A stretch of 64,000 bases of DNA from assembly GCA_041687355.1 (NCBI GenBank), contig JAWLCD010000004.1:19725-83724 (forward strand), read 5' to 3'. This document shows positions 4,793-51,038 of the stretch, one piece after another. Source of the DNA: Clostridia bacterium. Its GTDB lineage: Bacteria > Bacillota > Clostridia > Acetivibrionales > UBA4821. Every line of letters begins with the position of its first letter. Position 1 is the stretch's first letter. A program made the position numbers and the translations under genes. The notes under the pieces are model-generated. The model saw only the letters and a list, made by a program, of their open reading frames with translations, had not been told where the DNA came from and did not search any database.

Positions 4793-6259
4793 ATGCTATT
4801 CAGAAGAAACAATCAAAAAATTGAGAAGTACTTGCAAAAATTGGCTAACGGAGAGCAGTTATCAGAATCTGAGATACGGGCCATGAAAGAAGGCTATAAT
4901 ACCATGGCCAAGCAGGTTGCATCACTAACCGAGAAGCTTAATGAAGGCAAAAAGGATATTGCCGATGTGGTTGATGGTGTGATTGAGATTTCGACTCAGG
5001 TGAGCAGTTTTGACCTGAAGCTCATGCATTATGGTACAGGAATAAAGGAATCAACTGAAAAAATCAACAAGATTACTGAGGCGGTTTTTACAACCTCACA
5101 GGAGACTACTGCCAGTGCAACTCTCGTCTCCCAGGCCAATGCAGACTCTACCAGCTCACTTAACGAGATTACTGATGAGGCACATACAATAAATGATAAT
5201 ACAAAAAAGAATAATCTGCTTCTGGAGAAAATGAAGGCTGAGAATACAGAAGTTTTAAGGTATGCCCAGGGGATGAAGGTTGATGTTGATAACCTGGTAA
5301 ATACCCTGAGCAATGTTGAAGAGGCACTTAATGGCATTAACCTGATTGCCGAACAGACCAACCTTTTGGCTTTAAACGCATCGATAGAGGCGGCAAGAGC
5401 AGGCGAGGCCGGAAAAGGCTTTGCAGTTGTCGCAGATGAGATAAGGAAACTGTCGGATGAAACAAAGGATATGCTGGGCTCAATGAAGAACCTGGTAGGA
5501 AATATAAGGGATGCTTCAACCACAACCATTGAGAGCGTGGATAAAACAGTTGAATCGGTTGGCAAGGTTGACGAATCAATCATAGAGATTGTTGAGCTGG
5601 CTGAGCAAAACCTGAGTTCTATTGACCATATGACAAGTAATATGACTGAAATTGCATCACATAATCAGGAACTCAGCGCATCAATGGAAGAAGTAACTGC
5701 AGCAATGCATTCACTTAACTCGGATGCGGAGAATGCCAGTAAGCTGTGTGGTGAACTTGAGGGAGTGGGACAAGCAGTTTATAATGTCGCGGCAGGTATG
5801 GAAGAGATAGATAAAGTAGTCAGCGAAGTTGCCAGGAAGTGCGGAAGATTGGCAGTTAACCGGCTCTTTAGGCTTGAAAACCGCAGGTTCGAGCAGTATA
5901 TTGAACTGGCAATATCGGCACACAAGGGGTGGGTAGACAGCCTTGCAGGTATGGTAAGAAGCATGGAACTAAAACCTATACAGACAAATGATAGAAAATG
6001 CGGATTTGGACATGTTTACCATTCAATAGACCCCACACACCCAGCTGTTTTGCCTCTCTGGAAGGAGATAGAATCTCATCATCATGAACTCCACCAAAAG
6101 GGAGAAGATGTAATAGCCTGTATTAAAGGTGGGAAGAAGAAGGAGGCTGAACTGTACCTTCAGGAAGCTGAGCAGCTGTCGCAGAAGGTAATAGGTATAC
6201 TTGAAGAAATTCTGGGTACGTCCGAACAGCTTACTTCTGAGAATCAGTCGGTATTATAG
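4793..6259 (+). CDS. Soluble methyl-accepting chemotaxis protein with C-terminal CZB (zinc-binding) domain
   Basis: MCP signalling hairpin ([34 protein letters not shown]); no TM segment; C-terminal H/C motif CGFGHVYH...HHHELH. ATG 4793 has GGAGG 7 nt upstream; the track start 4787 is only 1 nt from it. Confidence 0.8.
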
Positions 6260-6312: not shown

Positions 6313-6334
6313 GTAAAAAATCAATATGGTAAAG

Positions 6335-6576
6335 ACGATGAACGGGAGAGTAGGCAGAGGGATTTGCATAGAGAGGGAATGCCAGCGTCTGGGAGCATTC
6401 CTGCGGGGAAGCCTGTCGAAGTTCACCCGGGAGTTCTGCTGTTGAAAGCTTAAGTAGGCAGCAGCGGAGAAATCCGTTAAATTGTTCAAGTGTCCGGCTG
6501 GGAGTATGGCTGGGAATTTGGGTGGTACCGCGAGAGTTTTGACCCTCGTCCCTTTTGCAAGGGATGAGGGTTTTCT
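6335..6576 (+). promoter_or_regulatory. T-box leader (Phe specifier) with intrinsic terminator
   Basis: GAGAGTA and AGAGA elements; specifier-loop GAAG-UUC-A (UUC at 6422-6424); conserved T-box AATTTGGGTGGTACCGCG at 6515-6532; terminator ACCCTCGTCCC/GGGATGAGGGT + TTTT at 6542-6575; directly upstream of pheS. Confidence 0.9.
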
Positions 6577-6619: not shown

Positions 6620-7639
6620 ATGAAACAGCAGTTGGAAAATATCAAAACAAATGCTGAAAAAGAGATATCGGAGGCTGCGTCTACACAGCAGCTGGAAGGC
6701 TTGAGAGTAAAGTACCTTGGCAAGAAGGGTGAACTCACTGCAGTATTAAGAGGTATGGGCAGTCTTAGTGCGGAAGAAAGGCCTGTCATAGGCCAGCTGG
6801 CCAATACAGTCAGAGAAGCAATTGAGGAGAGGCTGGAGAAGGCCGGAGAGGAATTATCCAAAAAGGAAACTCATGAGAAACTTAAAACCGAGTATATTGA
6901 TATAACCATGCCTGGAAAGGCACATAGGATTGGGCACAGGCATCCTCTTACGCAGGTTATTGATGAAATCAAGGATATTTTTCTGGGGATGGGTTATGAA
7001 GTTGCTGAAGGACCCGAGGTAGAGTATTCCTACTACAACTTCGATGCCCTTAATATCCCTGAGACACACCCGGCACGAGACCTTCAGGATACGTTTTATA
7101 TAAACGACAAGGTTATATTAAGAACCCAGACTTCACCAGTCCAGATTCGGGTTATGGAGAATAAAAAGCCCCCGATAAAGGTTATTTGCCCGGGAAGGGT
7201 TTACAGGTCGGATGCGGTTGATGCTACCCATTCACCCGTGTTTCACCAGATTGAGGGTCTTGTTGTCGACAAAGGAGTGACTATGGGAGACCTGAAAGGC
7301 TCTCTTGAAATTTTCTGCAAAGCTGTATTCGGTAAGGATACAAAAATAAGATTGAGACCTCATCACTTCCCGTTTACCGAACCCAGTGCAGAGGTTGATG
7401 TTTCATGTTTTGTATGCTCCGGTAAGGGCTGCAGGGTCTGCAAGGGTGAGGGCTGGATTGAGATAGTAGGTGCAGGTATGGTTCATCCCGGAGTGCTGTC
7501 AAACTGTGGTATTGACCCCGAGGTATACAGCGGGTTTGCATTCGGAATGGGAGTGGAAAGGATGGCCATGGCCAGGTTTGATATAGATGATATGAGACTG
7601 TTGTGGGAGAATGATATCCGATTCCTCAAACAGTTCTAA
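6620..7639 (+). CDS. pheS: Phenylalanine--tRNA ligase alpha subunit
   Basis: 339 aa, class II aaRS motifs (FRxE-like [25 protein letters not shown]); T-box upstream; pheT downstream. Confidence 0.95.
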
Positions 7640-7685: not shown

Positions 7686-10091
7686 ATGAAAGTGCCATTG
7701 AGTTGGTTGAAGGAATACGTAAATATTGATATAACTCCCAAGGAGCTGGCGGAAGCCCTTACCATGTCAGGCTCAAAGGTTGAGGGAATTGAGGAACTTG
7801 GGAGCGGCATTTCCAACGTAGCTGCCGGAAAGATAATTTCCCTTGAAAAGCATCCTGATGCAGATAAACTACAGGTTGCAAAGGTCGATGCCGGCAGCGG
7901 GGTATTGCAGATTGTGACAGGAGCGGACAATATCAAAGAAGGAGATATAATTCCTGTCGCTAAAGAAGGGGCAGCACTGCCGGGAGGGAAAACAATTGGC
8001 AGAGGTGTGCTCAGAGGAGTGGAGTCGGTTGGAATGATGTGTTCAATTCAGGAGCTCGGACTTACAAGGTATGATTATCCGGAAGCGCCTGAACACGGGA
8101 TATTTATTCTGGATCCTGGTGTAGAACCGGGAACTGATATTAAAGAAGTTCTGGGGCTTGATGATGTTGTTATAGAATTTGAGATTACTCCTAATCGTCC
8201 CGACTGCCTTTCAATTATAGGCATTGCCCGTGAGACAGCAGTTACACTCAGAAGGGAACTCAAAGCAGAGAATATTATGCAGGCTGATAAATGTAGGTCA
8301 TCCCTTGCCGGCCGGACGCAGGGATCAGGGGTATCAATTGAGATAAAGAATCCCGAACTCTGTCCAAGGTATATCGGCAGGGTAGTAAGGAATATCAGGA
8401 TTGAACCATCGCCGGAGTGGATGAGAAAGAGGCTCAGGGCAGCTGGGATAAGGCCAATCAACAACCTCGTTGACGTTACAAACTACGTTATGCTTGAACT
8501 GGGCCAGCCTATGCATGCTTTTGACTTCGACAGGATTGAAGGAAAGAAAATTATTGTAAGAACGGCAAAAGAAGGGGAGAAGATAACTACACTTGATGAA
8601 CAGGAAAGAAAGCTTAACCCTGAAATGCTTGTAATTGCCGATGCGGTTAAACCGGTAGCCGTAGCAGGTGTCATGGGAGGCGCTAACTCTGAAGTTTCGC
8701 GAGATACAAAAAACATATTGCTTGAAGCAGCAAACTTTAATGGCGGTTCAGTTAGACTGACTGCAAAGGCCATGGGCTTCAGGACGGAATCTTCGTCAAG
8801 GTTTGAAAAAGGTCTTGATATTGAGAATGTTTCAAGAGCTATGGACAGGGCAGTGGAACTGCTTGAAGCCATGGGGGCCGGAGAGGCTGAAAAGGATGAT
8901 GTCGATTGCTGCCCGGTAAAATGGGAGCCCAGGGTGCTGAAGTTCAGGCCGGATAGGATTAATGCACTGCTTGGAACCAGGATAGACAAGGAATACATGG
9001 TGAAGGTCATGAGGGAGCTTGGCTTGTTGGTTGACGAAAAAGGCATGACTGTAACAATACCTTCATACAGGATGGATATTGAGGGAGAGGCTGACCTTGC
9101 CGAGGAGGTTGCAAGGTTCTATGGATATAATAATATTGAATCAAGCCTGTTTTCCGGAGAGACCACGCAAGGAGGAAAAACCCTGAAACAGAAGGTTGAA
9201 GATATGTGTAAATACGCAATGAATGCCCAGGGTCTTTCCGAGGCTTACACCTATTCATTCGTAAGTCCGAAAACTCTCGATATGATTAATATTGCTGAGT
9301 CTGACAGCCTGAGGAATTCAGTTAAGGTGATGAACCCTCTAAGTGAGGAACAGTCAATGATGAGGACTACCACAATACCCAGCATGCTTGAAGTTCTTGC
9401 AAGAAATTACTCCCGGAGGATTGAAGAAGTAAGACTATTCGAGCTGGGATATGTGTATACTCCCAAGGCCCTTCCCATTACTGAGCTGCCGGAGGAGAAA
9501 GAGGTTATTACCTTGGGGATGTACGGAAGCGGCGAGGACTTCTACACACTTAAAGGGGTTGTAGATGAGTTGTTCCGATACCTTGGGATACGAAACTATG
9601 AGATGAAAAGGGCTAGTGACCCGGTATTTCACCCTGGACGCAGTGCGCAGATTTACATCTCCGGCCGGAAAGCCGGGATAATCGGAGAGATTCATCCAGA
9701 TGTCCTGGAGAACTATAATATTGACTGCAGGGCCTATATAGGGGTGGTTGAGTTCAGACCGATTCTTGAAAACGTGAACCTAGTGCACAAATATAAGCAT
9801 CTGCCGAAATTCCCTGCTGTTGACAGGGATATTGCAATGGTTGTCAAGGATGAGATTACAGTCGGGGAGATTGAGTCTGTTATAAAGTCCTGTGCCGGAG
9901 ATATCCTTGAAGAACTAACCATGTTTGATGTCTACAAGGGAGGTCAGATACCGCAGGGAAGCAAGAGCGTGGCATATTCCATGAGTTTCAGGGCGGCAGA
10001 CAGGACCCTTACCGATGAAGAGGTAAACCAGATTATGCATGAAGTTATTAAGGAACTCAAGGGTAGGATTAATGCCGAGCTGAGAGGATAG
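7686..10091 (+). CDS. pheT: Phenylalanine--tRNA ligase beta subunit
   Basis: 801 aa; N-terminal tRNA-binding domain (MKVPLSWLKEYV), B3/4, B5 and FDX-ACB regions in the usual order. Confidence 0.95.
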   Translation: MKVPLSWLKEYVNIDITPKELAEALTMSGSKVEGIEELGSGISNVAAGKIISLEKHPDADKLQVAKVDAGSGVLQIVTGADNIKEGDIIPVAKEGAALPGGKTIGRGVLRGVESVGMMCSIQELGLTRYDYPEAPEHGIFILDPGVEPGTDIKEVLGLDDVVIEFEITPNRPDCLSIIGIARETAVTLRRELKAENIMQADKCRSSLAGRTQGSGVSIEIKNPELCPRYIGRVVRNIRIEPSPEWMRKRLRAAGIRPINNLVDVTNYVMLELGQPMHAFDFDRIEGKKIIVRTAKEGEKITTLDEQERKLNPEMLVIADAVKPVAVAGVMGGANSEVSRDTKNILLEAANFNGGSVRLTAKAMGFRTESSSRFEKGLDIENVSRAMDRAVELLEAMGAGEAEKDDVDCCPVKWEPRVLKFRPDRINALLGTRIDKEYMVKVMRELGLLVDEKGMTVTIPSYRMDIEGEADLAEEVARFYGYNNIESSLFSGETTQGGKTLKQKVEDMCKYAMNAQGLSEAYTYSFVSPKTLDMINIAESDSLRNSVKVMNPLSEEQSMMRTTTIPSMLEVLARNYSRRIEEVRLFELGYVYTPKALPITELPEEKEVITLGMYGSGEDFYTLKGVVDELFRYLGIRNYEMKRASDPVFHPGRSAQIYISGRKAGIIGEIHPDVLENYNIDCRAYIGVVEFRPILENVNLVHKYKHLPKFPAVDRDIAMVVKDEITVGEIESVIKSCAGDILEELTMFDVYKGGQIPQGSKSVAYSMSFRAADRTLTDEEVNQIMHEVIKELKGRINAELRG

Positions 10092-14014: not shown

Positions 14015-14890
14015 TTGGAGATGGTGGTTGACTACATCAGGCAGTTCATTAATTATATGGGAATCTACAATATATTTGATGTGATCAGGGTGACCATAGA
14101 TATATCTGTCGTTTCCTATGTTATCTACTGGCTTATTATCCTTGTGCGAGACACCCGGGCATACCAGCTTATTAAAGGTATTATCGTTCTTATTGTTGCT
14201 ACCCAACTCAGTGAATGGTTTGAATTAAGGACAATCAACTATATACTTAAAAACACCATGACCTATGGTGTTCTTGCTTTATTAGTGGTCTTCCAGCCTG
14301 AACTGAGAAGGGCTCTCGAGCAGATAGGCAGGAGCAAGTTTAAGGACCTGTTTACAGTAGATGAAGAGAACAGGGAGGACAAGCTAAAAAATACAATTGA
14401 TGAAGTGCTCAGAGCAGTAGAGATGTTGTCAAAAACCTTTACGGGGGCGTTAATTGTATTTCAAAAGACCACCGGAATGGGTGATATAGTAAGAAACGGC
14501 ATACCGATTAATGCAAATGTGACGGCTGAATTAATACTAAATATCTTCACACCTAACACACCTCTTCATGACGGTGCGGTTATAATCAGGGAAGACAAAG
14601 TAAGGGCTGCTGCATGTTTCCTGCCGCTGACCGAGAACTACGAGCTCAGCAAAGAGCTTGGGACAAGGCATCGGGCAGCATTGGGAATGAGTGAGAATTC
14701 GGACTCAATAGCCATTGTTGTATCGGAGGAGAGCGGAAAGATTTCCATGGCGGTAAATGGGGGCCTGACAAGGAATCTGAGCGTTGATACCTTAAGGATG
14801 GCACTGACCAAACTTCTCATTGAGAAGAAAACCAATTCCAGGAAACTAACGCTTTGGAAGGTGAAAAAAGATGAAGATGTTGGGCGATAA
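14015..14890 (+). CDS. cdaA: Diadenylate cyclase CdaA (membrane-anchored DAC domain)
   Basis: Three N-terminal TM helices; DAC motifs PLHDGAVII and GTRHRAALG; start is TTG 14015 or ATG 14021. Confidence 0.9.
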   Translation: MEMVVDYIRQFINYMGIYNIFDVIRVTIDISVVSYVIYWLIILVRDTRAYQLIKGIIVLIVATQLSEWFELRTINYILKNTMTYGVLALLVVFQPELRRALEQIGRSKFKDLFTVDEENREDKLKNTIDEVLRAVEMLSKTFTGALIVFQKTTGMGDIVRNGIPINANVTAELILNIFTPNTPLHDGAVIIREDKVRAAACFLPLTENYELSKELGTRHRAALGMSENSDSIAIVVSEESGKISMAVNGGLTRNLSVDTLRMALTKLLIEKKTNSRKLTLWKVKKDEDVGR

Positions 14891-16161: not shown

Positions 16162-16290
16162 GATTTTTCCGCAAACTTATTCGTCAGTTAATTCATTTTC
16201 CCCTGAAGCTAGAAGCAAGATAGTTTCTTTAAAGAACTACTTAAATTCCAGTGTCTAGGCTTCAGTATCCTGTCTCCATCTAGTCGTGTC
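16162..16290 (+). repeat. Copy 1 of an intergenic repeat family (core GATTTYTCC...AGTTAATTCATTTTCCCC plus distal CGYGTCCCCCTACC)
   Basis: The 42-nt core at 16162-16203 matches 21281-21319 and the reverse complement of 30891-30930. Distal CGTGTCCCCCTACC (16276-16289) matches the reverse complement of 30784-30797. An internal hairpin CTGAAGC.TAGA / TCTAGGCTTCAG is present. Confidence 0.6.
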
Positions 16291-21028: not shown

Positions 21029-21127
21029 GGCAATGTATTTATTTCCTGGAAACGGAGAATATAAGATTAGATTATATAGCTTATGTTGTATAGTATTTCA
21101 GAATAATAAGGAAAAATAAATTAACAG

Positions 21128-21319
21128 CTCATAAGGACTACGAAATCGAGATAAACTAGATGCTTGTTATACTAAATTTCAGACCGGAATTAATTCGCCA
21201 TCCTGGCTTAATAATTACTAGAATTGACGTCCTGTCAATTCTTCCTGAAATTTGAGCATAACATAGCATAGTTTATCTAAGATTTCTCCATTACTTATTC
21301 GCCAGTTAATTCATTTTCC
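21128..21319 (+). repeat. Copy 2 (long form) of the intergenic repeat family, with a nested about 133-nt palindromic insert
   Basis: The ends CTCATAAGGACTACGAAATC (21128-21147) and GATTTCTCCATTACTTATTCGCCAGTTAATTCATTTTCC (21281-21319) are contiguous in the short copy at 30891-30954. The insert 21148-21280 has inverted arms GAGATAAACTAGATGCTTGTTATACTAAATTTCAG / CTGAAATTTGAGCATAACATAGCATAGTTTATCTAA. Confidence 0.65.
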
Positions 21320-21352
21320 TTATATACTTTACAAGCTAAATAGCGTAAAAAA

Positions 21353-22031: not shown

Positions 22032-22511
22032 ATGAGCGAACATCCCATACAGGGTTTGATGAGTACTGCGATGCAAAGCATAAAGGATATGGTAGATGTG
22101 AATACTATCGTTGGTGATGCCGTCCAGTCTCCCGATGGTGCGGTTATTATTCCCATATCCAGGGTAACTTTCGGATTTGCGGCAGGTGGAAGCGAGTTTA
22201 GTGGGAATATCGAAGAACAGCAGGACAACTCAAAGGAAAACCAGGATGAAAATCAGGGAGGACGGATGCCCTTCGGAGGAGGAAGCGGGGCAGGAGTGAG
22301 TATTAATCCTATTGCCTTTCTTGTAGTCAGTAAGGAGAATATAAAACTGCTTCCGGTCAGCTATAATACATCTCTTGAGAAGGTGCTGGATTTTATACCG
22401 GAAGTGATAGATAAACTGGATGAGTCTATAAAGCAGAAGATTTCTGTAAGAAAAGAAGCAAAACATAATGGAGCCTCAGAAGTCAAAAAGAAAGAAATAC
22501 TAACAGAATAA
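22032..22511 (+). CDS. ytfJ: Sporulation protein YtfJ (GerW family)
   Basis: HPIQGLMSTAMQSIKDMVDVNTIVGD...VIIPISRVTFGFAAGGSEF...FGGGSGAGVSINPIAFLVV is the characteristic YtfJ pattern. Confidence 0.8.
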   Translation: MSEHPIQGLMSTAMQSIKDMVDVNTIVGDAVQSPDGAVIIPISRVTFGFAAGGSEFSGNIEEQQDNSKENQDENQGGRMPFGGGSGAGVSINPIAFLVVSKENIKLLPVSYNTSLEKVLDFIPEVIDKLDESIKQKISVRKEAKHNGASEVKKKEILTE

Positions 22512-22522
22512 TTGCCCGTAGT

Positions 22523-22562
22523 GACAAGGGGACGGGGTTGTTGACAACCCCGTCCCCTTGTC
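22523..22562. repeat. REP-like palindrome A (perfect 18-bp stem, 4-nt loop)
   Basis: GACAAGGGGACGGGGTTG-TTGA-CAACCCCGTCCCCTTGTC; same motif as 26262-26287, 27092-27114 and 50096-50159; lies 12 nt after the ytfJ stop. Confidence 0.85.
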
Positions 22563-22611
22563 TATTATCTATTTCTCTTCCACCTTTATAACATACTTAT
22601 TATTCACAATA

Positions 22612-22640
22612 TTGACATAAAATGTATTGTATGCTAGATT
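22612..22640 (+). promoter_or_regulatory. Putative promoter of the toxin gene (long leader)
   Basis: TTGACA - 17 nt - (TGC)TAGATT read directly; about 260 nt upstream of ATG 22900. Confidence 0.4.
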
Positions 22641-22899
22641 TAAAAAGTTATTTAAACATAATATAGATTCAACAGGTTTGAGCCTGAAATACGTTAAACA
22701 ATTGTTCAACGTAGGATGTTGAAGAAGGAGGAGGTGATTACAAGTAAATATTAGCGGTAACCCACTAGGCTATAGTTTAATAGGATTTAAAGCAAGGGCA
22801 GGTGAGAAAGAGTAGGAGAACTTAGTTTCTATCCAGGACGAATAGATACTCTAGAAGGCTTATTACTAAGGATGATACTAAGAAAGGACGGACGTTGAA

Positions 22900-25740
22900 A
22901 TGATTAGAAAAAGACGGAGAAAATTGAATATAGGAAGATTTATAATTTTTCTATGTGTGGTCACCGCACTTTTAGCTGGAACAGTCTTCGTAGGCATCAA
23001 GGCATGGAACCATTTTACCGGAGACAATATCAACATCAGCCAATGGTTCGATAGGTTCACAAACAAGGAAGAAGCAAGAGAACCTGTTTTGCAAGAGGTT
23101 TTGAGAACTGACTTGAATGTCTCGGTTTCGTTTGAGTCAGCTGATGACCTGGCGAAGACAACCACTATTGATCCAGTTCCGGAGTTAAAAACTGCAATTG
23201 GCCAGAAGGGTATTATCGGTGAGCCGGTTAGTATAAGAACAACATCAGAATTTGAAGAGGCAAAAATTACATTTAAATATGACCCGTCTGAACTAGGTGC
23301 TGCAAAGGTACAGAATCTCCGGATATTTTATTACGATGATGAGAATAGAAATCTGGAGCTTGTAGAAGAGCAGTCCATAGACACTTCAACCAATACGGTA
23401 ACGGCAAATGTGAGCCACTTCTCCATATACCTGCTTGCAGACATGAGTGAATGGTCAAAAACCTGGAAGGACAACTTAACAAAAGCTTTACCCAGGGCAC
23501 CTGACGGAAAGGCTATCCGAAAACCGCTTGACATGGTCTACGTTATTGACAGCTCAGGCAGCATGGGGCCTACACCGTATGGGCATTCACGCTATGACTA
23601 TGAAAGCGACATGAACAATGACAGAATAAAACAGACCCAAGCATCCATAAGGCTTATGGCAAACGATGACAGGGCTGCAGTAATAAGCTTTGACAGCAGC
23701 GCATACCTTCTGCAGGAGTTGACCGGTAACAAAGATGCTCTTATTGCTGCTGCCGATAGAATAGGGGCTAGTGGAAAAACAAACATTCCATGCGGTATTG
23801 AGCAAGCACTTGAACAGCTGTCATCCTATGGACGAAAAGATGCAAATAAATATATTGTCTTCTTGACAGACGGTAAGAATACCGAGGGCAGCGATGATGT
23901 TGACTGGCTCATTAATACAGCCAAGCAGCTTCAGGTCAAGATTTTCACAGTCGCCCTTGGGAAAAATGCCGACAGGCGTTTGCTTGAGATAATTGCCGAG
24001 GCAACCGGAGGAGACTTCTACTACGCCGATTACGCAAAGCAGTTAAAAGATAAGTTCATGCTCATTGGCGAAAAAGTGGATCTGGATATCGATGTTGATA
24101 CCGACAAGGATGGTATTCCCGATTGGGCTGAGAAGAAAGGCTATATACTGCAGGGAACACTAATGAAGGTTATTGCTCCAACAGACCCCAACAACAAGGA
24201 CACTGATAATGACGGTGTGCCAGACAACATCGAATTGGGTACTGTATACTATGACCCCGATACACGGCTTGCTTATGTCAGTGCTGAACCGCTGGTATAT
24301 GGAAAACCTCATGAACCCTACCGCAGTGACCCCACCAAGAAGGATAGAAGGTATGAACTTGATGCCAACTGGCAGGTAGACATTATAAATGCCGCAATGC
24401 TAAAATATCAACAGGGAGAAATAACAACCGAGGCATATAATGCAATCTTCAAAGAAGCATCAGACAGACTTTCGGCATATTACATGGCATCCAAAGGTGA
24501 TATTTTACAAGCGTTCATCGAGACTGAACAGTATAAATTTGCAACTGAGCATATGATGGACATTGAGCTGGTTCAAGAAATAATCCGGGATGCATTTCAG
24601 TTTGAAGAACAGCAAACAACAGGTATAATGGATGCTGAAACATGCAGCAATGTTGCTATGATTCAGATACTCTATAAATCGCAGTATCCGGAAATTCAAG
24701 TAACGGGCTACTTTGACCCGGCAACCAGGCAGCTTTTTGAAGCCATAATTGACCCGAATGACAGCGAGGTTGTCCAGAAAAAGCGTATACTCTCACGCGA
24801 TGAAAAACTTGCAGCAAACGTATTCGGTATTCCTTTAGGTGCCGGTCAAACAGTAATTGGAGCGTTGCAAGGGCTTGGTGAGCTAGGAGCAGAAGCAGCA
24901 ATTTATACAGTCTTTAGTCCTCTTACACGTGGTATCTGTGAAGTCTCACACAGTTCAGGATGGATGAGCGACCGTAGGTATAACAACATGGTGGATTATC
25001 TGGACCGGGACCAGCAGCAAAGGGAGCAGATGTTTGCCAGTATTCCTGCCAATATGTGGGAAGGTATAAGGAATGATGTAGCAAACACTATACAACTGCC
25101 TGCAAACATGTTAGACCCGACGAAGGATATACATGATATGGCCTCGTCCTATCAAAGCGCCCTTAATACAGCACTATTGGCTTACGGCGGTTCCAAAAGC
25201 GTAAAATTTACAGCCACAAAAACCTTTAAAGGGCTGGTTAAAGCAAAGAATGGAACAATCAAGCTGCTTGAATCGGATGCTATAAAGGCCCTCAGGGTTA
25301 GATTCAAGGACAATAGGGGAGCCTTAATGCCTGGGGCTAAGGATAGGGTTGTTGTAAGGAAAGTGGATAATGCTGCTGAGGGAGCAGCTGACGCGAGTAA
25401 GAGGCTAGAATACTTAGGAGCAACACCAGGGAAAGCCTCGAAAACAGGTCAGGAAGTAATTAAAAGAATGGAACAGGAAGGAAAAATAAGAAAGGATCCA
25501 TTTGGGAAGACAGAATTTCAAGCTAGTGATGGGAAATGGTACGATATAAAAGAAGCTGATATGGCTCATAAATATGATGCTGTTACATGGTGGAATGAAA
25601 CAGGAAGGTACTACGGTGCCAAATCCCCTGAAGTAAGAAAGTGGATGTTAGATCCTAATAATTACTACTTAGACCATTTTAGTATTAATCGTTCTCAGGG
25701 AGCGCAACTTAATGAGAATTATTTGCCTCCAATAAAATAG
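22900..25740 (+). CDS. Membrane-anchored polymorphic-toxin-like protein: N-terminal TM, vWA domain, thrombospondin type-3-like Ca-binding repeats, long helical region, C-terminal HNH/EndoVII-fold (GH-E-like) toxin domain
   Basis: TM FIIFLCVVTALLAGTVFVGI; MIDAS VYVIDSSGSMG...TDG; DTDKDGIPDWAE and DTDNDGVPDN; C-terminus GATPGKASKTGQEVIKRM...ADMAHKYDAV...DPNNYYLDHFSINRSQG resembles the GH-E nuclease family as I recall it. Confidence 0.6.
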   Translation: MIRKRRRKLNIGRFIIFLCVVTALLAGTVFVGIKAWNHFTGDNINISQWFDRFTNKEEAREPVLQEVLRTDLNVSVSFESADDLAKTTTIDPVPELKTAIGQKGIIGEPVSIRTTSEFEEAKITFKYDPSELGAAKVQNLRIFYYDDENRNLELVEEQSIDTSTNTVTANVSHFSIYLLADMSEWSKTWKDNLTKALPRAPDGKAIRKPLDMVYVIDSSGSMGPTPYGHSRYDYESDMNNDRIKQTQASIRLMANDDRAAVISFDSSAYLLQELTGNKDALIAAADRIGASGKTNIPCGIEQALEQLSSYGRKDANKYIVFLTDGKNTEGSDDVDWLINTAKQLQVKIFTVALGKNADRRLLEIIAEATGGDFYYADYAKQLKDKFMLIGEKVDLDIDVDTDKDGIPDWAEKKGYILQGTLMKVIAPTDPNNKDTDNDGVPDNIELGTVYYDPDTRLAYVSAEPLVYGKPHEPYRSDPTKKDRRYELDANWQVDIINAAMLKYQQGEITTEAYNAIFKEASDRLSAYYMASKGDILQAFIETEQYKFATEHMMDIELVQEIIRDAFQFEEQQTTGIMDAETCSNVAMIQILYKSQYPEIQVTGYFDPATRQLFEAIIDPNDSEVVQKKRILSRDEKLAANVFGIPLGAGQTVIGALQGLGELGAEAAIYTVFSPLTRGICEVSHSSGWMSDRRYNNMVDYLDRDQQQREQMFASIPANMWEGIRNDVANTIQLPANMLDPTKDIHDMASSYQSALNTALLAYGGSKSVKFTATKTFKGLVKAKNGTIKLLESDAIKALRVRFKDNRGALMPGAKDRVVVRKVDNAAEGAADASKRLEYLGATPGKASKTGQEVIKRMEQEGKIRKDPFGKTEFQASDGKWYDIKEADMAHKYDAVTWWNETGRYYGAKSPEVRKWMLDPNNYYLDHFSINRSQGAQLNENYLPPIK

Positions 25741-25776
25741 CTTGGTATTTAAAAATAATATTTAAGGAGAAGGAAT

Positions 25777-26193
25777 ATGGCAACATTAAATTCAGATATT
25801 CAAAGACATATAGAGGAGTTAATCCAAAAATGTGGAATTGAATATCAAAAAGAAAACTATAATGATGCTATTGCATTATTAGAAAAATCATGGGATATTT
25901 TGCCTTGTCCAAAAGTTATTTATGATGAGAGCTATAGAATTGCAAAATATATTATTCAGTTTTGTCTTTTAGCAAAGGACGTTGATAAAGCTAAAAGATG
26001 GGCTGGTATTATATCAATTTGCGATTTAGAACGAGCTGATAGTGGTGAAAGAGAGTTTTTGGCAGGAAAAGTGGCATATGAGTCAAATGATTTACAAATG
26101 GCAAAAGAGTATTTCTATGTTGCTAACTGGAAATCCGAGGGTAGATGCTTCATAGACGAAGACTCAAAATACTTGAACTTACTAGAAAACTAG
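25777..26193 (+). CDS. Putative cognate immunity protein (small helical/TPR-like)
   Basis: 138 aa, cytoplasmic, AT-rich gene 36 nt downstream of the toxin stop with its own RBS (AAGGAGAAGG); position typical of immunity genes. Confidence 0.45.
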   Translation: MATLNSDIQRHIEELIQKCGIEYQKENYNDAIALLEKSWDILPCPKVIYDESYRIAKYIIQFCLLAKDVDKAKRWAGIISICDLERADSGEREFLAGKVAYESNDLQMAKEYFYVANWKSEGRCFIDEDSKYLNLLEN

Positions 26194-26208
26194 TATTGGC
26201 TAATTCTC

Positions 26209-26249
26209 AGAGTCAGTAGGATATTTCATTTCCTATTGACTCTTTTTTT
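26209..26249 (+). terminator. Rho-independent terminator after the immunity gene
   Basis: GAGTCAGTAGGA / TCCTATTGACTC stem followed by T7. Confidence 0.75.
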
Positions 26250-26261
26250 AATGATACATGT

Positions 26262-27124
26262 GACAAGGGGACGGGGTTGTTGACAACACCTCTGATACAT
26301 AGTACTATATATCAGAGGTGAATATTATGTCAAGAGTTCCAAGAAATAGAAGCAAGAGCGGAGTATACCATATAATTATGAGAGGAATAAACCGACAAAG
26401 CATATTCGAAGATGAGGAAGATTGTGATAAATTCATCCAAACCATCCAAAAGTATAAAGAAATTTGTGAATATAAGTTATATGCATACTGTCTTATGGGA
26501 AATCATCTGCATTTGCTGTTAATGGAAGGTAAAGAACCGTTGGAGCAGGTTATGAGAAGGATATGTGGCAGTTATGTCTACTGGTATAACCGTAAGTATG
26601 ACAGGGTAGGTTATTTATTTCAAGATAGATATAAAAGTGAGCCGGTAGAGGATGATGCATATTTTCTTACAGTATTAAGATATATATATCAAAACCCTGT
26701 AAAGGCTGGCATGGTAACAAGTGTTGAAAAACATACATGGAGTAATTATGACGAATATATAGGAAGAAATACAATGGCTGAAACAAACTTTGTTCTTGAC
26801 ATGTTTAGTAAAGAAAGAGAAAAAGCGATTAAGAGTTTCATTAAATATATTAACGAACCAAATGATGATGTTTGCCTGGAAATATCGGAAAACCAGCAGA
26901 TTAAGGATGAAGATGCAAGAGTTATTATCAAGAACCTATGTAAAGTAAATAATGCAATAGACCTACAAAAACTTAACGCAGATAAAAGAAATGCATGCTT
27001 AAAAGAATTAAAAGAAAAGCATGGCTTATCTATCAGACAGATTGAGAGATTGACCGGAATAAACAGGGGAATTATTCAGAGAGTAGAGGGTGACAACAAC
27101 CCCGTCCCCTTGTCACCCTCTACT
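26262..27124 (+). mobile_element. RAYT unit: REP-associated tyrosine transposase gene flanked by inverted REP copies
   Basis: The left REP is GACAAGGGGACGGGGTTGTTGACAAC (26262-26287). The right REP is inverted, GACAACAACCCCGTCCCCTTGTC (27092-27114), and sits inside a 15-bp-stem hairpin (27082-27124). Confidence 0.75.
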
Positions 27125-27133
27125 GGAGATTAA
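26327..27133 (+). CDS. IS200/IS605-type Y1 (HUH) transposase-like protein, REP-associated (RAYT), with C-terminal HTH region
   Basis: YHIIMRGINRQSIF, HUH motif GNHLHLLL, catalytic-Tyr region LFQDRYKSEPV...LRYIYQNPVKAG; C-terminal LSIRQIERLTGINRGIIQRV; ATG 26327 has GAGGTG 6 nt upstream. Confidence 0.8.
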   Translation: MSRVPRNRSKSGVYHIIMRGINRQSIFEDEEDCDKFIQTIQKYKEICEYKLYAYCLMGNHLHLLLMEGKEPLEQVMRRICGSYVYWYNRKYDRVGYLFQDRYKSEPVEDDAYFLTVLRYIYQNPVKAGMVTSVEKHTWSNYDEYIGRNTMAETNFVLDMFSKEREKAIKSFIKYINEPNDDVCLEISENQQIKDEDARVIIKNLCKVNNAIDLQKLNADKRNACLKELKEKHGLSIRQIERLTGINRGIIQRVEGDNNPVPLSPSTGD

Positions 27134-27620
27134 ACTCTGTCTTTATCGATTCGACTGCCCTTACTTCGTCTTTGCCTGAAACCAGATAGGAGATATCGGT
27201 TTCTGAGGTGCTTACCAGTTTTATATCTATTCCTCTTTCAGCTAAAAGGGCAAAAAGGTTGGCTGCAACGCCAGGAATGTTTCTCATGCCTTCACCATAT
27301 ACCGATATTTTTGAGTTGTTTGAATCAATATCCAGTCTCAGCTGGGGTATATCCTTCTTGAACACTGCAAGAGCTTCAATTACTTTAGACACATCACTCA
27401 GTGGTATACTGAACGACACATTGACCACTCCACTGTATGAGGGTGTCTGGGTTATCATATCAACGTTAATATTTTCTCTTGCAACTGCATTGAAAATATC
27501 AGACATTGTTTTAATATTGTTGGGAACCTTATCAAGGGTTATAAGGGCAACATCACTTAGTACTGTATAGCCGGTTATAATATCGTCATCTATCAATAAT
27601 TCCACCTCCGTAAGTTTCAT
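27120..27620 (-). CDS. Stand-alone tandem-ACT-domain protein (aspartokinase regulatory-subunit-like)
   Basis: Two ACT-like repeats (ITLDKVPNNIKTMSDIFNAVARENINVDMI; VYGEGMRNIPGVAANLFALLAERGIDIKLV); ATG for MKLTEV chosen because the track start 27692 lies inside dapB; no clear SD. Confidence 0.55.
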   Translation of the reverse strand: MKLTEVELLIDDDIITGYTVLSDVALITLDKVPNNIKTMSDIFNAVARENINVDMITQTPSYSGVVNVSFSIPLSDVSKVIEALAVFKKDIPQLRLDIDSNNSKISVYGEGMRNIPGVAANLFALLAERGIDIKLVSTSETDISYLVSGKDEVRAVESIKTEFNLQ

Positions 27621-30526: not shown

Positions 30527-30775
30527 AAAAGCCGGTCGTGTGGACCAGCTATATGTGACCACAACAAGACAAGCCTAACGCAAGCCTTGCTGCGACCTGA
30601 ACACCTTTAAGATAGCTCTCCACCAGCGTTTGATGACAGTCATGCCGCTGTTAGCGTCATAACCAGGATGTATGCAACCGGGTACATATTCCTTCGGCAC
30701 TTATACCTTTCTCCGGCATCATTGAAACCCTGTTTTCTCAAACCGGATACTGATTAGAAGTGCACCTCTACCTGA
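30527..30775 (-). promoter_or_regulatory. Lysine riboswitch (L-box) with terminator, leader of asd-dapA-dapB-ACT
   Basis: The minus strand reads AGAGGTGC...GCCGGAGAAAGG...GTGCCGAAGG...ACTGTCA...TGGAGAGCTATC, the conserved L-box blocks. The terminator GCTGGTC-CACAC-GACCGGC + TTTTAATTT is at 30527-30555. Confidence 0.85.
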
Positions 30776-30854
30776 AATAATATGGTAGGGGGACGCGACC
30801 ATTCGCTTCGCTCAAGGAACGTCCCCCTTTGATTTAGTTTTAAATCTTTAGCTA

Positions 30855-30883
30855 ATGATACCATTCAGTATTGTGTATGTCAA
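30855..30883 (-). promoter_or_regulatory. Putative sigma-A promoter for the L-box/asd operon
   Basis: Minus strand TTGACA - 17 nt - TATCAT. Confidence 0.5.
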
Positions 30884-30890
30884 ATAGTAA

Positions 30891-30954
30891 GGGGAAATGA
30901 ATTAACTAGTGAGTAAGTTATGGAGAAATCTGATTTCGCAGTCCTTATGAGTGG
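30891..30954 (-). repeat. Copy 3 (short form) of the intergenic repeat family
   Basis: The reverse complement reads CCACTCATAAGGACTGCGAAATCAGATTTCTCCATAACTTACTCACTAGTTAATTCATTTCCCC. It matches the two ends of 21128-21319 joined without the insert. Confidence 0.65.
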
Positions 30955-30992
30955 CTAATTTATCTTTCCCTGTAACCAGCTTACCCCTTTGT

Positions 30993-50093: not shown

Positions 50094-50095
50094 AC

Positions 50096-50159
50096 ATGAC
50101 AAGGGGACGGGGTTAGTGACAACACCCAGGTGTTGTCACTAACCCCGTCCCCTTGTCAT
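50096..50159. repeat. REP-like palindrome D (about 29-bp perfect stem)
   Basis: ATGACAAGGGGACGGGGTTAGTGACAACA-CCCAGG-TGTTGTCACTAACCCCGTCCCCTTGTCAT; lies between tRNA-Leu and the 3' end of a convergent gene. Confidence 0.85.
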
Positions 50160-50165
50160 GCGGAA

Positions 50166-51038
50166 TTACTTCCAGTAACAGCCGAAGCGGCCCTTTTTCA
50201 TCTCTGCTCCATTTGCAAAGCCGTTTTCCTTACAGCGCTTCAGCATATCGTCAATCCTTTCAACGGCAGCATTACCTTGTTCCTTGGTCATTGAACCATT
50301 GGCAACCATCTTGTTGACCAGTTCCTTCTGAAGATTGGCCATATTCTGAGCGAAATCCGTCAAATCGATTTTCTGCTGGTCAGTAAGCTCTGAAGTGCCA
50401 ATTCCGGGAATGCCCAAAAGGCCAAAGTTATACAAGCCGCCTCTTCCTATTCCCATGTAGTTTCTTGCGCCGCTGTTTTCAAGATTCTCAACCATGGCGT
50501 CGATTTTTTTTGCTGCAGCATCACCCTGAGCTTTGGTTATTAGCCCATTGGCAACCATCTTACTACTAAAATTCTTGTGCAAATCGGTTATTTTTCTGAA
50601 GGTATTATTCAAGTCAGCCTTCTGTTGGTCGGTGAGCTTTGAGGCGTCAATTCTGTTTATACCGAAATCACCCTGCTTTCCATACCCACCCCGATGGCCT
50701 TTTCTCATGCCCATACCGCCTATGGAACCATTTTCTTCCCGGTTTGCAAGTATGTCATCAACCCTTTTGACGGCGGCATCACCTTGTTCCTTGGTCATTG
50801 AACCGTTGGCAACCATCTCGTTAATAAATTCCTTTTTAAGGTCAGCCATCTTTTTGGAGTAATCTTCTACGGCAGCTTTCTGCTTATCAGTAAGCTTTGA
50901 AGTGTCAATCCCCAGGAATCCTTTTACAGTTCTAGCTGCAGTAGTATCAGATGTGGCTGCATAAACTGAAAAAGGAACTGCAATGCCGACGATAATGGTC
51001 AAAAGTATAAGTAGTTTGCTTCTCTTCACTGTATTCAC
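50166..51038 (-). CDS. Secreted protein with three DUF2680 (YckD-like) repeats
   Basis: Signal peptide; three copies of LTD[KQ]QK-x-[DA]-...-KMVANG[SL][MI]TK[EA]QG[DN]AA separated by Gly-rich linkers. Confidence 0.6.
   Translation of the reverse strand: MNTVKRSKLLILLTIIVGIAVPFSVYAATSDTTAARTVKGFLGIDTSKLTDKQKAAVEDYSKKMADLKKEFINEMVANGSMTKEQGDAAVKRVDDILANREENGSIGGMGMRKGHRGGYGKQGDFGINRIDASKLTDQQKADLNNTFRKITDLHKNFSSKMVANGLITKAQGDAAAKKIDAMVENLENSGARNYMGIGRGGLYNFGLLGIPGIGTSELTDQQKIDLTDFAQNMANLQKELVNKMVANGSMTKEQGNAAVERIDDMLKRCKENGFANGAEMKKGRFGCYWK

Follow-up and report, generated by a model that had tools for sequence, protein, structure and literature searches.

In a 64-kb stretch of DNA from a Clostridia bacterium (hereafter the window, meaning the whole stretch analysed), the segment between the sporulation gene ytfJ and the dap operon is a lineage-specific insertion, and this islet is a mosaic of three parts: the VWA/TSP3 scaffold of a polymorphic toxin, an AT-rich toxin tip with its immunity gene, and a gene for a RAYT, the tyrosine transposase associated with repetitive extragenic palindromes (REPs), enclosed by two REP copies (Table 1). 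We consider it probable, at about 0.6, that the islet brings together two unrelated selfish modules, the toxin-immunity operon and the REP-RAYT-REP unit, which became co-located in a permissive gap between convergent genes and were possibly stitched together by REP-by-REP recombination. An earlier note on this DNA had described a REP-bounded accessory island at this position and had suggested that REP/RAYT-associated recombination delivers or shuffles toxin cassettes. The description of the island was borne out, and the suggested delivery route was not supported by the homologous loci that we compared.

A lineage-specific insertion between ytfJ and the dap operon

A search with YtfJ yielded 69 genome loci and 37 metagenome loci, in seven of which the dap operon follows ytfJ as in the window (L001, L002, L003, L059, L081, L082, and L083; YtfJ identity 68-96%). 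In all seven relatives the gene encoding an ACT-domain protein lies about 50-175 nt beyond ytfJ on the opposite strand, and none of the seven loci contains the toxin, the immunity gene, the RAYT or a REP of the window family. The flanks, which the earlier note had called conserved housekeeping or sporulation genes, consist of ytfI and ytfJ to the left of the islet and of ACT, dapB, dapA and asd to its right, and their synteny is retained in the same seven relatives. The ACT gene also has NCBIfam aspartate-kinase C-terminal matches and is the last gene of the operon asd-dapA-dapB-ACT.

The closest relative, L001, encodes flanking proteins that are 86-96% identical to those of the window at the amino acid level, and its empty site is an ordinary terminator hairpin with a 21-bp stem, the right arm of which includes the ACT stop codon. 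In the alignment with this site, homology stops no more than about 10 nt past the ytfJ stop and restarts at TCTACTGGAGATTAAACTC, which again includes the ACT stop codon. Both junctions are clean, with the coding ends of ytfJ and ACT untouched; the ytfJ gene of the window is 96% identical to that of L001, with homology up to the stop codon. Hence, the accessory island between core genes proposed in the earlier note is real, with seven relatives empty at this position and a REP at either edge, and the synteny, GC and GC3 (GC content at third codon positions) comparisons found neither the same gene content in all relatives nor an unbroken composition. The islet shares with genomic islands its absence from the seven relatives and an atypical composition, the latter in its right 1.7 kb only, and no integrase, tRNA or target-site duplication was found at the site, where the sole repeats are the REPs.

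The earlier note had also proposed a look for empty sites with a single REP. The gap of L002 does hold one palindrome, but this belongs to a different, GGGACGGTTCTT-type (GGGACGG-type) family with two copies in 15 kb of the L002 locus. Because the L002 palindrome is of a different family, palindromic repeats have entered the convergent ytfJ/ACT gap on more than one occasion and independently. As a separate observation, the core GGGACGGTTCTT of the L002 repeat resembles the GGGGACGGGG core of the window REP.

Since palindromic repeats are classic points of mis-assembly and the source contig appears to be known from a single record, we considered whether the islet is a chimera, in which a metagenome contig was mis-joined at repeated REPs and the islet is not truly at this site. 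We regard this as highly improbable. The segment is flanked by the two sides of one and the same intergenic gap, which would be abnormal for a chimera, and the sequence at the stop of the RAYT gene reads through continuously into the end of the ACT gene. In addition, the 1.3-kb contig L070, from an independent read assembly, spans the immunity gene, the left RAYT repeat (REP B) and the RAYT identically.

An exchangeable toxin tip with its immunity gene

Polymorphic toxins (Rhs, CdiA, LXG and similar) have swappable C-terminal tips and adjacent immunity genes, and their tip-plus-immunity cassettes are classically exchanged at the scaffold/tip junction. The gene content that the earlier note had assigned to the islet, a polymorphic toxin, a putative immunity gene and a RAYT between the REPs, was confirmed by Pfam matches to VWA and Y1_Tnp and by immunity homologues standing behind the same tip in other loci. 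The toxin consists of an N-terminal membrane or signal anchor, a VWA domain (aa 211-383), TSP3-type Ca-binding repeats (about aa 397-455), scaffold sequence up to aa 804 and a variable tip. The homologue P0122 matches the scaffold over aa 64-804 with 55% identity and ends in a Toxin-deaminase tip followed by an Imm3 gene, while P0123 and P0124 match it up to aa 479 and 555, respectively, and carry WHH/Colicin-DNase tips followed by one or two SUKH genes. The scaffold is thus the conserved part of the protein, with a different tip and a different immunity gene in each type of homologue.

The tip of the window toxin occurs, conversely, on unrelated scaffolds. Its domain was found in 563 representative proteins of 107-5,956 aa; among the 150 best hits, 129 have it ending no more than six residues before the C-terminus. 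The invariant positions of the tip family include the histidine of a D-M-x-H motif and the asparagine of N-R-S, and the scaffolds that bear it include DUF4280, Tox-PAAR-like, eCIS_core and SpvB/TcdB/RHS. Pfam GH-E (PF14410) matches 13 of 22 members of the tip family (best E = 4.7e-6), and the window tip itself scores 16-17 bits against this model (E about 0.01), where the gathering threshold is 25 bits; no relative of solved structure was recovered by sequence search. In loci L128-L133 a tip 81% identical to that of the window terminates an unrelated toxin that is 3,730 aa long or longer, and homologues of the immunity protein (66% and 51% identical) are encoded directly 3' of the matching tip domain. 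Another immunity homologue is found in L134, where immunity genes of the SUKH, Imm47 and Syd types form an array. Pfam contains no model for the immunity family. In total, three loci with scaffold homologues (L077-L079) and eight with tip or immunity homologues (L128-L135) were compared, and three hallmarks of polymorphic toxins were found: swappable tips on one scaffold, one tip on unrelated scaffolds, and a downstream immunity gene that co-varies and travels with the tip.

An RNA element in the leader of the toxin gene was considered and rejected. The 337 nt in front of the toxin gave only noise-level Rfam hits, which fell on the palindrome, contain no plausible small open reading frame (ORF), and have no nucleotide similarity to the regions upstream of the toxin homologues.

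Base composition of the islet

The earlier note had remarked that the right part of the islet, from about 25.4 to 27.1 kb, is AT-rich. This proved correct, as windowed GC is 31-36% over about 25.4-27.2 kb compared to 41.7% for the whole window, and GC3 of the genes in this part is 0.24-0.31. Measured per part, the scaffold (codons 1-804) has a GC3 of 0.433, the tip 0.310, the immunity gene 0.239 and the RAYT 0.300, where the background is 0.422 +/- 0.050, so that the right 1.7 kb of the islet falls 2.2-3.7 standard deviations under the background and the left 2.4 kb is host-like. The boundary of the AT-rich part, at about 25.3-25.4 kb, falls within the toxin gene and coincides with its scaffold/tip junction (aa 805-828), and this drop in GC3 is therefore the expected signature of a tip-plus-immunity cassette replacement, a composition break of the kind seen in other polymorphic toxins. 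The tip and the immunity gene of the window toxin have been swapped in as a cassette, and this ordinary swapping explains the AT-rich end of the toxin gene; the cassette would have come from a source of lower GC by the usual recombination at the junction, where no REP is present.

For the RAYT a different explanation applies. RAYT genes have 33-36.5% GC in hosts of 37-46% GC, and since the gene was AT-rich in every one of the five hosts examined, its low GC is a trait of the family. The low GC of the RAYT as a sign of recent transfer into this host was consequently dropped.

The composition also bears on whether the toxin, the immunity gene and the RAYT were already present in a common ancestor and were deleted in the sampled relatives. 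In favour of such a history, the scaffold is host-like in GC3 (0.43), and direct repeats of the REP could mediate deletions. Nevertheless, the tip, the immunity gene and the RAYT are compositionally foreign, and the seven relatives, spanning 68-96% YtfJ identity, have compact and scar-free gaps with ordinary or unrelated hairpins, so that several independent precise losses would be needed. We therefore find an ancestral origin of the locus very unlikely, though not to the same degree as an assembly error.

REP repeats in the window

The two REPs that the earlier note had placed at 22523-22562 and, in inverted orientation, within the hairpin 27082-27124 were both found there (designated REP A and REP C). 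Two further sites, the half-site 26260-26287 shortly before the RAYT gene and the palindrome 50095-50160, were absent from that note. The 19-nt core GACAAGGGGACGGGGTT is present in six copies at three sites in the 64-kb window, compared to 0.02 expected by chance, and the pattern GACAAGGGGACGGGGTTGT with up to three mismatches gave six matches in the 64 kb, a number reached in 0 of 100 shuffles. The RAYT gene is flanked by inverted copies of the repeat, as 26260-26285 and 27091-27116 are 96% complementary over 26 nt, and a REP B layout like that of the window is found also in L071, L075, L076 and L118. Furthermore, 22521-22548 of REP A is identical to the RAYT left end at 26260-26287 in 28 of 28 nt, and perfect direct repeats hence bracket the toxin operon.

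REP A begins 10 nt past the ytfJ stop. Its segment 22523-22562 is a perfect palindrome with an 18-bp stem and a 4-nt loop (single-stranded DNA fold -23.6 kcal/mol, z = -9.3) and was terminator-like in the scan, and REP A is now probably the terminator of ytfJ. The promoter-like site that starts in its loop agrees with the consensus at 11 of 12 positions, a match to consensus alone that would make it a candidate promoter of the toxin operon, and a second candidate lies at 22612-22640. The hairpin 27082-27124 at the other edge (15-bp stem, -14.8 kcal/mol, z = -3.7) contains the reverse-complement REP arm 27096-27114.

The window holds two solo palindromes, the second of which lies outside the islet at 50095-50160, one base after tRNA-Leu; a convergent DUF2680 gene (50166-51038) has its 3' end about 5 nt away. 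In each arm of the palindrome the resemblance to the RAYT left end takes in the ACACC extension, indicating that it is a head-to-head dimer of the left end, and its presence outside the islet suggests that the repeat is dispersed in the source genome. Elsewhere, the neighbourhood of the RAYT homologue in L118 contains 10 REP copies in 8.7 kb, mostly as inverted doublets. A single repeat does not form a hairpin on its own, and the palindrome arises only when two repeats form a head-to-head pair with a 2-4-nt spacer. GTAG precedes REP A only, where it appears to be inherited from the old terminator; the other copies are preceded by CATG, AACA or TAAG, and CGTC lies inside the stem rather than in an unpaired tag. 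Membership in the GTAG- or CGTC-tagged REP superfamilies (PMC3733652) was ruled out on these grounds.

As a side observation, the DUF2680 gene next to the second palindrome contains three copies of a 116-nt repeat at 50242-50864, about 250 nt apart and with 62-78% identity to the reference copy, which correspond to three DUF2680 domains of a 290-aa protein encoded on the minus strand.

A RAYT from a Clostridia-wide family

The REP-RAYT-REP unit measures about 860 bp, with flanking inverted repeats of about 26-28 nt. Its protein scored 75.7 bits (E = 3.3e-21) against NCBIfam NF047646 (REP_Tyr_transpos), for which the cut-off is 80, and because of this near miss we regard the protein as a relative of that curated equivalog family and not as a member. 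All positions that do not vary among 15 family members are retained by the window RAYT, among them the HUH motif H60-L-H62 and, with the catalytic Y119, R118-Y119-I120...N123-P124. A single-sequence search gave no relative of solved structure, and the family profile reached E. coli TnpArep (PDB 4er8) with E = 5.6e-4 across both motifs, making this the best solved relative. The family is Clostridia-wide and numbers 5,062 proteins at E <= 1e-10, the canonical length being 253 aa, and the ratio of nonsynonymous to synonymous substitution rates among RAYT units (dN/dS 0.09-0.16) indicates purifying selection. Among plasmids no close match to the RAYT or the REPs was found (at most 40% identity), and phages and viral contigs gave none.

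The unit of L071 and L075, which the window unit matches except at the stop codon, has the following order: GTGACAnGGGGACGGGGTTnTTGACA, a hairpin with the ribosome-binding site (RBS) in its 3' arm, an ATG and 253 codons, TAG, and GTGnCAnnAACCCCGTCCCCnnGTCA. In L076 the flanking repeats are present with a shorter and hairpin-free leader. The RBS hairpin is kept in the three closest units, with one compensatory pair, and is not found in L076 or L118. A promoter-like site in the window (26280-26308) combines TTGACA in the left repeat with TACTAT after 17 nt, and the sequences upstream in L071 and L075 have the same TTGACA-17 nt-TAnnAT spacing by eye; judged from these motifs, the TTGACA in the left repeat and the TAnnAT are a probable promoter of the RAYT gene itself.

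The canonical 253 codons of the window RAYT end at 27085, and the stop codon of the family, TAG, is GAG at 27086-27088. Through this stop loss the frame gains 15 codons, which cross REP C and end 14 nt inside the convergent ACT gene, a tail unique to the window protein. With the T-to-G change a G-C pair also becomes complete in the stem (15 bp) of the hairpin 27082-27124, and it may be for the hairpin, and not for the protein, that the change was kept. The RAYT product (GTG or ATG start, 26318-27133) is absent from the protein collection in which the toxin, immunity and YtfJ proteins of the same contig are present; perhaps the gene was called otherwise in the source annotation, or taken there for a pseudogene.

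These features suggest how the site may have been rebuilt. The insertion has overwritten a bidirectional terminator, which stood between ytfJ and the asd-dapA-dapB-ACT operon controlled by the lysine riboswitch, and both modules would have landed in a permissive gap between convergent genes. REP A would then terminate ytfJ and give the toxin operon a -35 box, and the REP C hairpin, its stem lengthened by the TAG-to-GAG change, would stand in for the lost terminator of the dap operon. In this scheme the RAYT would bind and cleave single-stranded REP hairpins and thereby spread REPs.

Besides the window, four independent contexts of RAYT homologues were available (L071, L075, L076, and L118). 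The closest homologue, in L071 (2838-3650, 79% amino acid identity), stands right after ORF fragments resembling RHS/YD repeats (...YRYDAFGG...), the frame of which ends in a stutter of partial REPs; there is a further REP some 620 nt upstream, an adjacent IS66 element, and prfB downstream. Truncated genes abut the RAYT in L075, where a PD-(D/E)XK transposase (9608-9937) covers profile positions 107-211 of 229, and in L118, where a NERD fragment of 60 aa is found (5178-5360), and RAYT units may sit in, or create, decayed regions. In a Natronincolaceae population (L118-L127) the RAYT homologue is found at one fixed site after recR in many samples. Compared to L118 (about 4800-6214), a 1.2-kb segment between REP doublets of about 98 nt, containing the NERD fragment and a DSBA gene, is inverted in L126; this orientation was seen in one metagenome assembly against at least nine others, with the breakpoints within the doublets, and is either REP-mediated or an assembly artefact.

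Table 1. Positions of the islet, its parts and related features. Coordinates refer to the window except for the last row.
Feature	Position	Strand	Details
ytfJ, left core flank	22032..22511	+	Pfam Spore_YtfJ, E = 2e-29; coding end intact
Lineage-specific insertion, about 4.6 kb	22512..27118		replaces the bidirectional intergenic terminator of L001 (about 48 nt)
REP A, solo palindrome	22521..22562		28 nt equal to the RAYT left end, plus complementary arm
Promoter-like site, toxin operon	22541..22568	+	-35 TTGACA is the loop of REP A; TATTAT 16 nt on
Polymorphic toxin, 946 aa	22900..25740	+	Pfam VWA, E = 4e-18; Binary_toxB Ca-binding domain, E = 2.5e-6
Toxin tip, aa 828-946	25381..25737	+	GH-E-like HNH/EndoVII nuclease domain; GC3 0.31
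Immunity gene, 138 aa	25777..26193	+	weakly TPR-like; GC3 0.24; starts 36 nt past the toxin stop
Intrinsic terminator, toxin-immunity operon	26210..26249	+	predicted from sequence; hairpin then seven T
REP B, left terminal inverted repeat of RAYT unit	26260..26287	+	half-site; holds the putative RAYT promoter -35 TTGACA
RBS hairpin	26287..26320	+	3' arm is the RAYT ribosome-binding site AGAGGTG
RAYT	26327..27133	+	Y1 HUH transposase with C-terminal helix-turn-helix (HTH) domain; Pfam Y1_Tnp, E = 2.7e-15
REP C, right terminal inverted repeat of RAYT unit	27090..27116	-	within hairpin 27082-27124
ACT-domain gene, right core flank	27120..27620	-	aspartokinase regulatory-domain-like; Pfam ACT_9, E = 1.4e-29
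Lysine riboswitch	30605-30778		precedes the asd-dapA-dapB-ACT operon
Second solo REP palindrome, outside the islet	50095..50160		32-bp perfect arms; -40.6 kcal/mol, z = -12.7
REP core copies	both arms of 22523-22562; 26262-26280 (+); 27096-27114 (-); both arms of 50095-50160		19-nt core
Repeat family of L002 (L002 coordinates)	5427-5460 and 14606-14655		core GGGACGGTTCTT; first copy exactly in the ytfJ/ACT gap, second about 9 kb away

Relationship between the toxin and the RAYT

If REP/RAYT recombination delivered or shuffled toxin cassettes, as the earlier note had suggested, the two modules should recur together. This was not the case, as none of the 11 toxin or immunity homologue loci (L077-L079 and L128-L135) has a REP or a RAYT, a toxin-like neighbour is present in one of the four other RAYT contexts (the RHS/YD fragment of L071) with the remaining three lacking a toxin, and the scaffold/tip junction at which the cassette was exchanged carries no REP. 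The composite unit from REP A to REP C was found nowhere else within the limited sampling. The adjacency of toxin and RAYT is therefore best read as co-location, with REP-by-REP recombination as the most plausible route by which the modules would have been stitched together, and with no dedicated RAYT-driven system of toxin delivery.

Several observations weigh against this interpretation. Both edges of the islet are REPs and the toxin operon lies between perfect 28-nt direct repeats, as a REP-mediated integration or a composite element would leave them. The closest RAYT homologue, in L071, likewise adjoins a toxin fragment (RHS/YD-like) with an extra REP upstream, and across the five contexts, including the window, a weak but real association of RAYTs with toxins is conceivable. 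No intermediate state of the site, with the RAYT only, the toxin only or a single REP of the window family, was present among the recovered YtfJ loci. Finally, the copy numbers of REPs and RAYTs in the source DNA apply to the 64 kb of the window.

The direct repeats could reflect the integration of a cassette at a REP. Under this explanation the RAYT unit was already present between ytfJ and ACT, and a circular DNA with the toxin-immunity operon and one REP palindrome entered by a single crossover in the 28-nt left end, either homologous or RAYT-catalysed, with the REPs serving as attachment sites. The arrangement agrees with the product expected of a crossover in the left end, since the perfect 28-nt direct repeats (22521-22548 and 26260-26287) flank the toxin operon, REP A consisting of the left end and the opposite arm and REP B of the left end and the RAYT leader; moreover, in a related system the 1.2 kb between REP doublets is inverted in L126 compared to L118. 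However, any palindromic REP beside a RAYT end automatically yields such direct repeats, the L126 inversion could have arisen as an artefact when palindromic repeats were assembled, REPs are absent from the toxin and immunity homologue loci, and no circle or alternative junction was seen. We consider this origin of the islet unlikely, and we are just as doubtful of the broader idea that REPs of the Clostridial RAYT family act as attachment sites that capture and release cassettes, in which case the toxin-immunity operon would be a REP-flanked and potentially excisable cassette.

Alternatively, the whole segment from REP A to REP C could be one composite transposon that carries toxin and immunity gene as cargo and was moved by the RAYT, with REP A as its outer left end, in the peel-and-paste manner of IS200/IS605 elements. 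The outer termini of the islet do match those of the RAYT unit (28 of 28 nt on the left, and the same right end), the catalytic residues of the RAYT are intact, and the lack of a target-site duplication is what would be expected for Y1 transposases. Yet this composite was found nowhere else, its toxin and immunity proteins each being known from one long contig and the immunity protein additionally, with the same sequence, from one short contig of the same organism, and the host-like scaffold next to a RAYT that is not host-like argues against one shared history. The RAYT also occupies one fixed locus across the L118-L127 samples and thus behaves as non-mobile. A composite transposon is accordingly a still less likely origin than integration at a REP, and the co-location of two separate modules remains our preferred explanation.

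Comparison with known systems

The window RAYT shares the Y1 HUH fold class and the YI-x-NP-VK-G motif with the TnpArep/REP/bacterial interspersed mosaic element system of E. coli (PDB 4er8) and with the REPIN-RAYT system of Pseudomonas (PMC2817692, PMC3116915, PMC5581495). As in proteobacterial REP/RAYT systems, the gene lies between inverted copies of a short GC-rich repeat, further copies of which stand downstream of genes as palindromes (two in the window) or as doublets (in L118), and the RAYT occupies a single fixed locus (in L118-L127) and is under purifying selection. In contrast to these systems, the 253-aa proteins of the window family have an extra C-terminal HTH domain of about 100 aa, and the repeats have no conserved GTAG tag and no hairpin in the single state. 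Pseudomonas REPs mark old and stable regions, and recently acquired DNA is REP-poor (PMC3390384), which makes a RAYT with REPs within a lineage-specific insertion mildly atypical. Clostridial RAYTs have received only a passing mention in a RAYT survey, under Group 1 (PMC5581495).

A second class for comparison is that of the TIRYTs and TIRtrons, RAYT-like genes with long terminal inverted repeats (TIRs) that are accompanied by solo TIRs in families of moderate abundance (Di Nocera et al. 2013, PMC3733652). Here the RAYT gene within inverted repeats of 26-28 nt without GTAG and the solo copies are shared with the window, and, from the sequence arrangement, the window layout resembles the TIR-flanked TIRYT class better than GTAG-tagged REPs. 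It departs from that class in that the left repeat carries the candidate -35 box of the gene and the solo copies are perfect, terminator-like palindromes. No example from Firmicutes or Clostridia is given in that survey, in which the text matches numbered 0 (PMC3733652).

The leader of the RAYT gene recalls yet another group of Y1 transposases. In IS200, of the IS200/IS605 family, a hairpin that hides the RBS controls expression of the transposase, and the window hairpin just upstream of the Y1 transposase start likewise pairs the Shine-Dalgarno sequence. By analogy, it would block translation of transcripts reading in from upstream. Unlike in IS200, the hairpin is kept in the three closest units only, the ends are inverted repeats instead of distinct left-end and right-end hairpins, and no multi-copy behaviour was seen.

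The toxin, for its part, differs from Rhs, CdiA and LXG toxins in having a scaffold of VWA and TSP3 repeats with an N-terminal anchor only, and no machinery of type VI secretion, type VII secretion, contact-dependent inhibition or RHS type was recognisable nearby.

Other features of the window

A TwoAYGGAY RNA (Rfam, 70.7 bits) was detected at 21135-21293 on the minus strand, nested in 21110-21342 between two segments that directly adjoin each other in a copy of 101 nt on the plus strand (30869-30969), and a 29-nt piece recurs at 16174-16202. The copies at 21110-21342 and 30869-30969 are inverted and bracket the ytfI-to-asd stretch; Rfam did not detect a second TwoAYGGAY RNA in the short copy at 30.9 kb. 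At the start of the window, 59-937 is an AT-rich gene fragment (GC 29.7%, GC3 0.22) with a NAD_binding_4/epimerase domain, which adjoins a 7TM histidine kinase gene of 35.8% GC and may be another foreign segment. A T-box leader at 6329-6556 (123.8 bits) precedes the gene 6620-7639 and is unrelated to the islet.

Implications

The islet represents a cleanly delimited case of a convergent terminator gap that was overwritten by two selfish modules, and in which REP hairpins appear to have taken over the role of terminator and perhaps that of promoter. It also draws attention to a RAYT family that extends across the Clostridia and, at more than 5,000 members, is very large, with proteins of 253 aa that include an added HTH domain and with terminal repeats that are conserved across distant hosts and carry the putative promoter. 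Should the REPs of this family capture cassettes, which we find doubtful, the system would move cargo and not only spread non-coding palindromes. Were they in addition to bracket and move toxin cassettes, RAYTs would be more than domesticated spreaders of palindromes, and a new route of exchange would exist for the competition genes of these bacteria.

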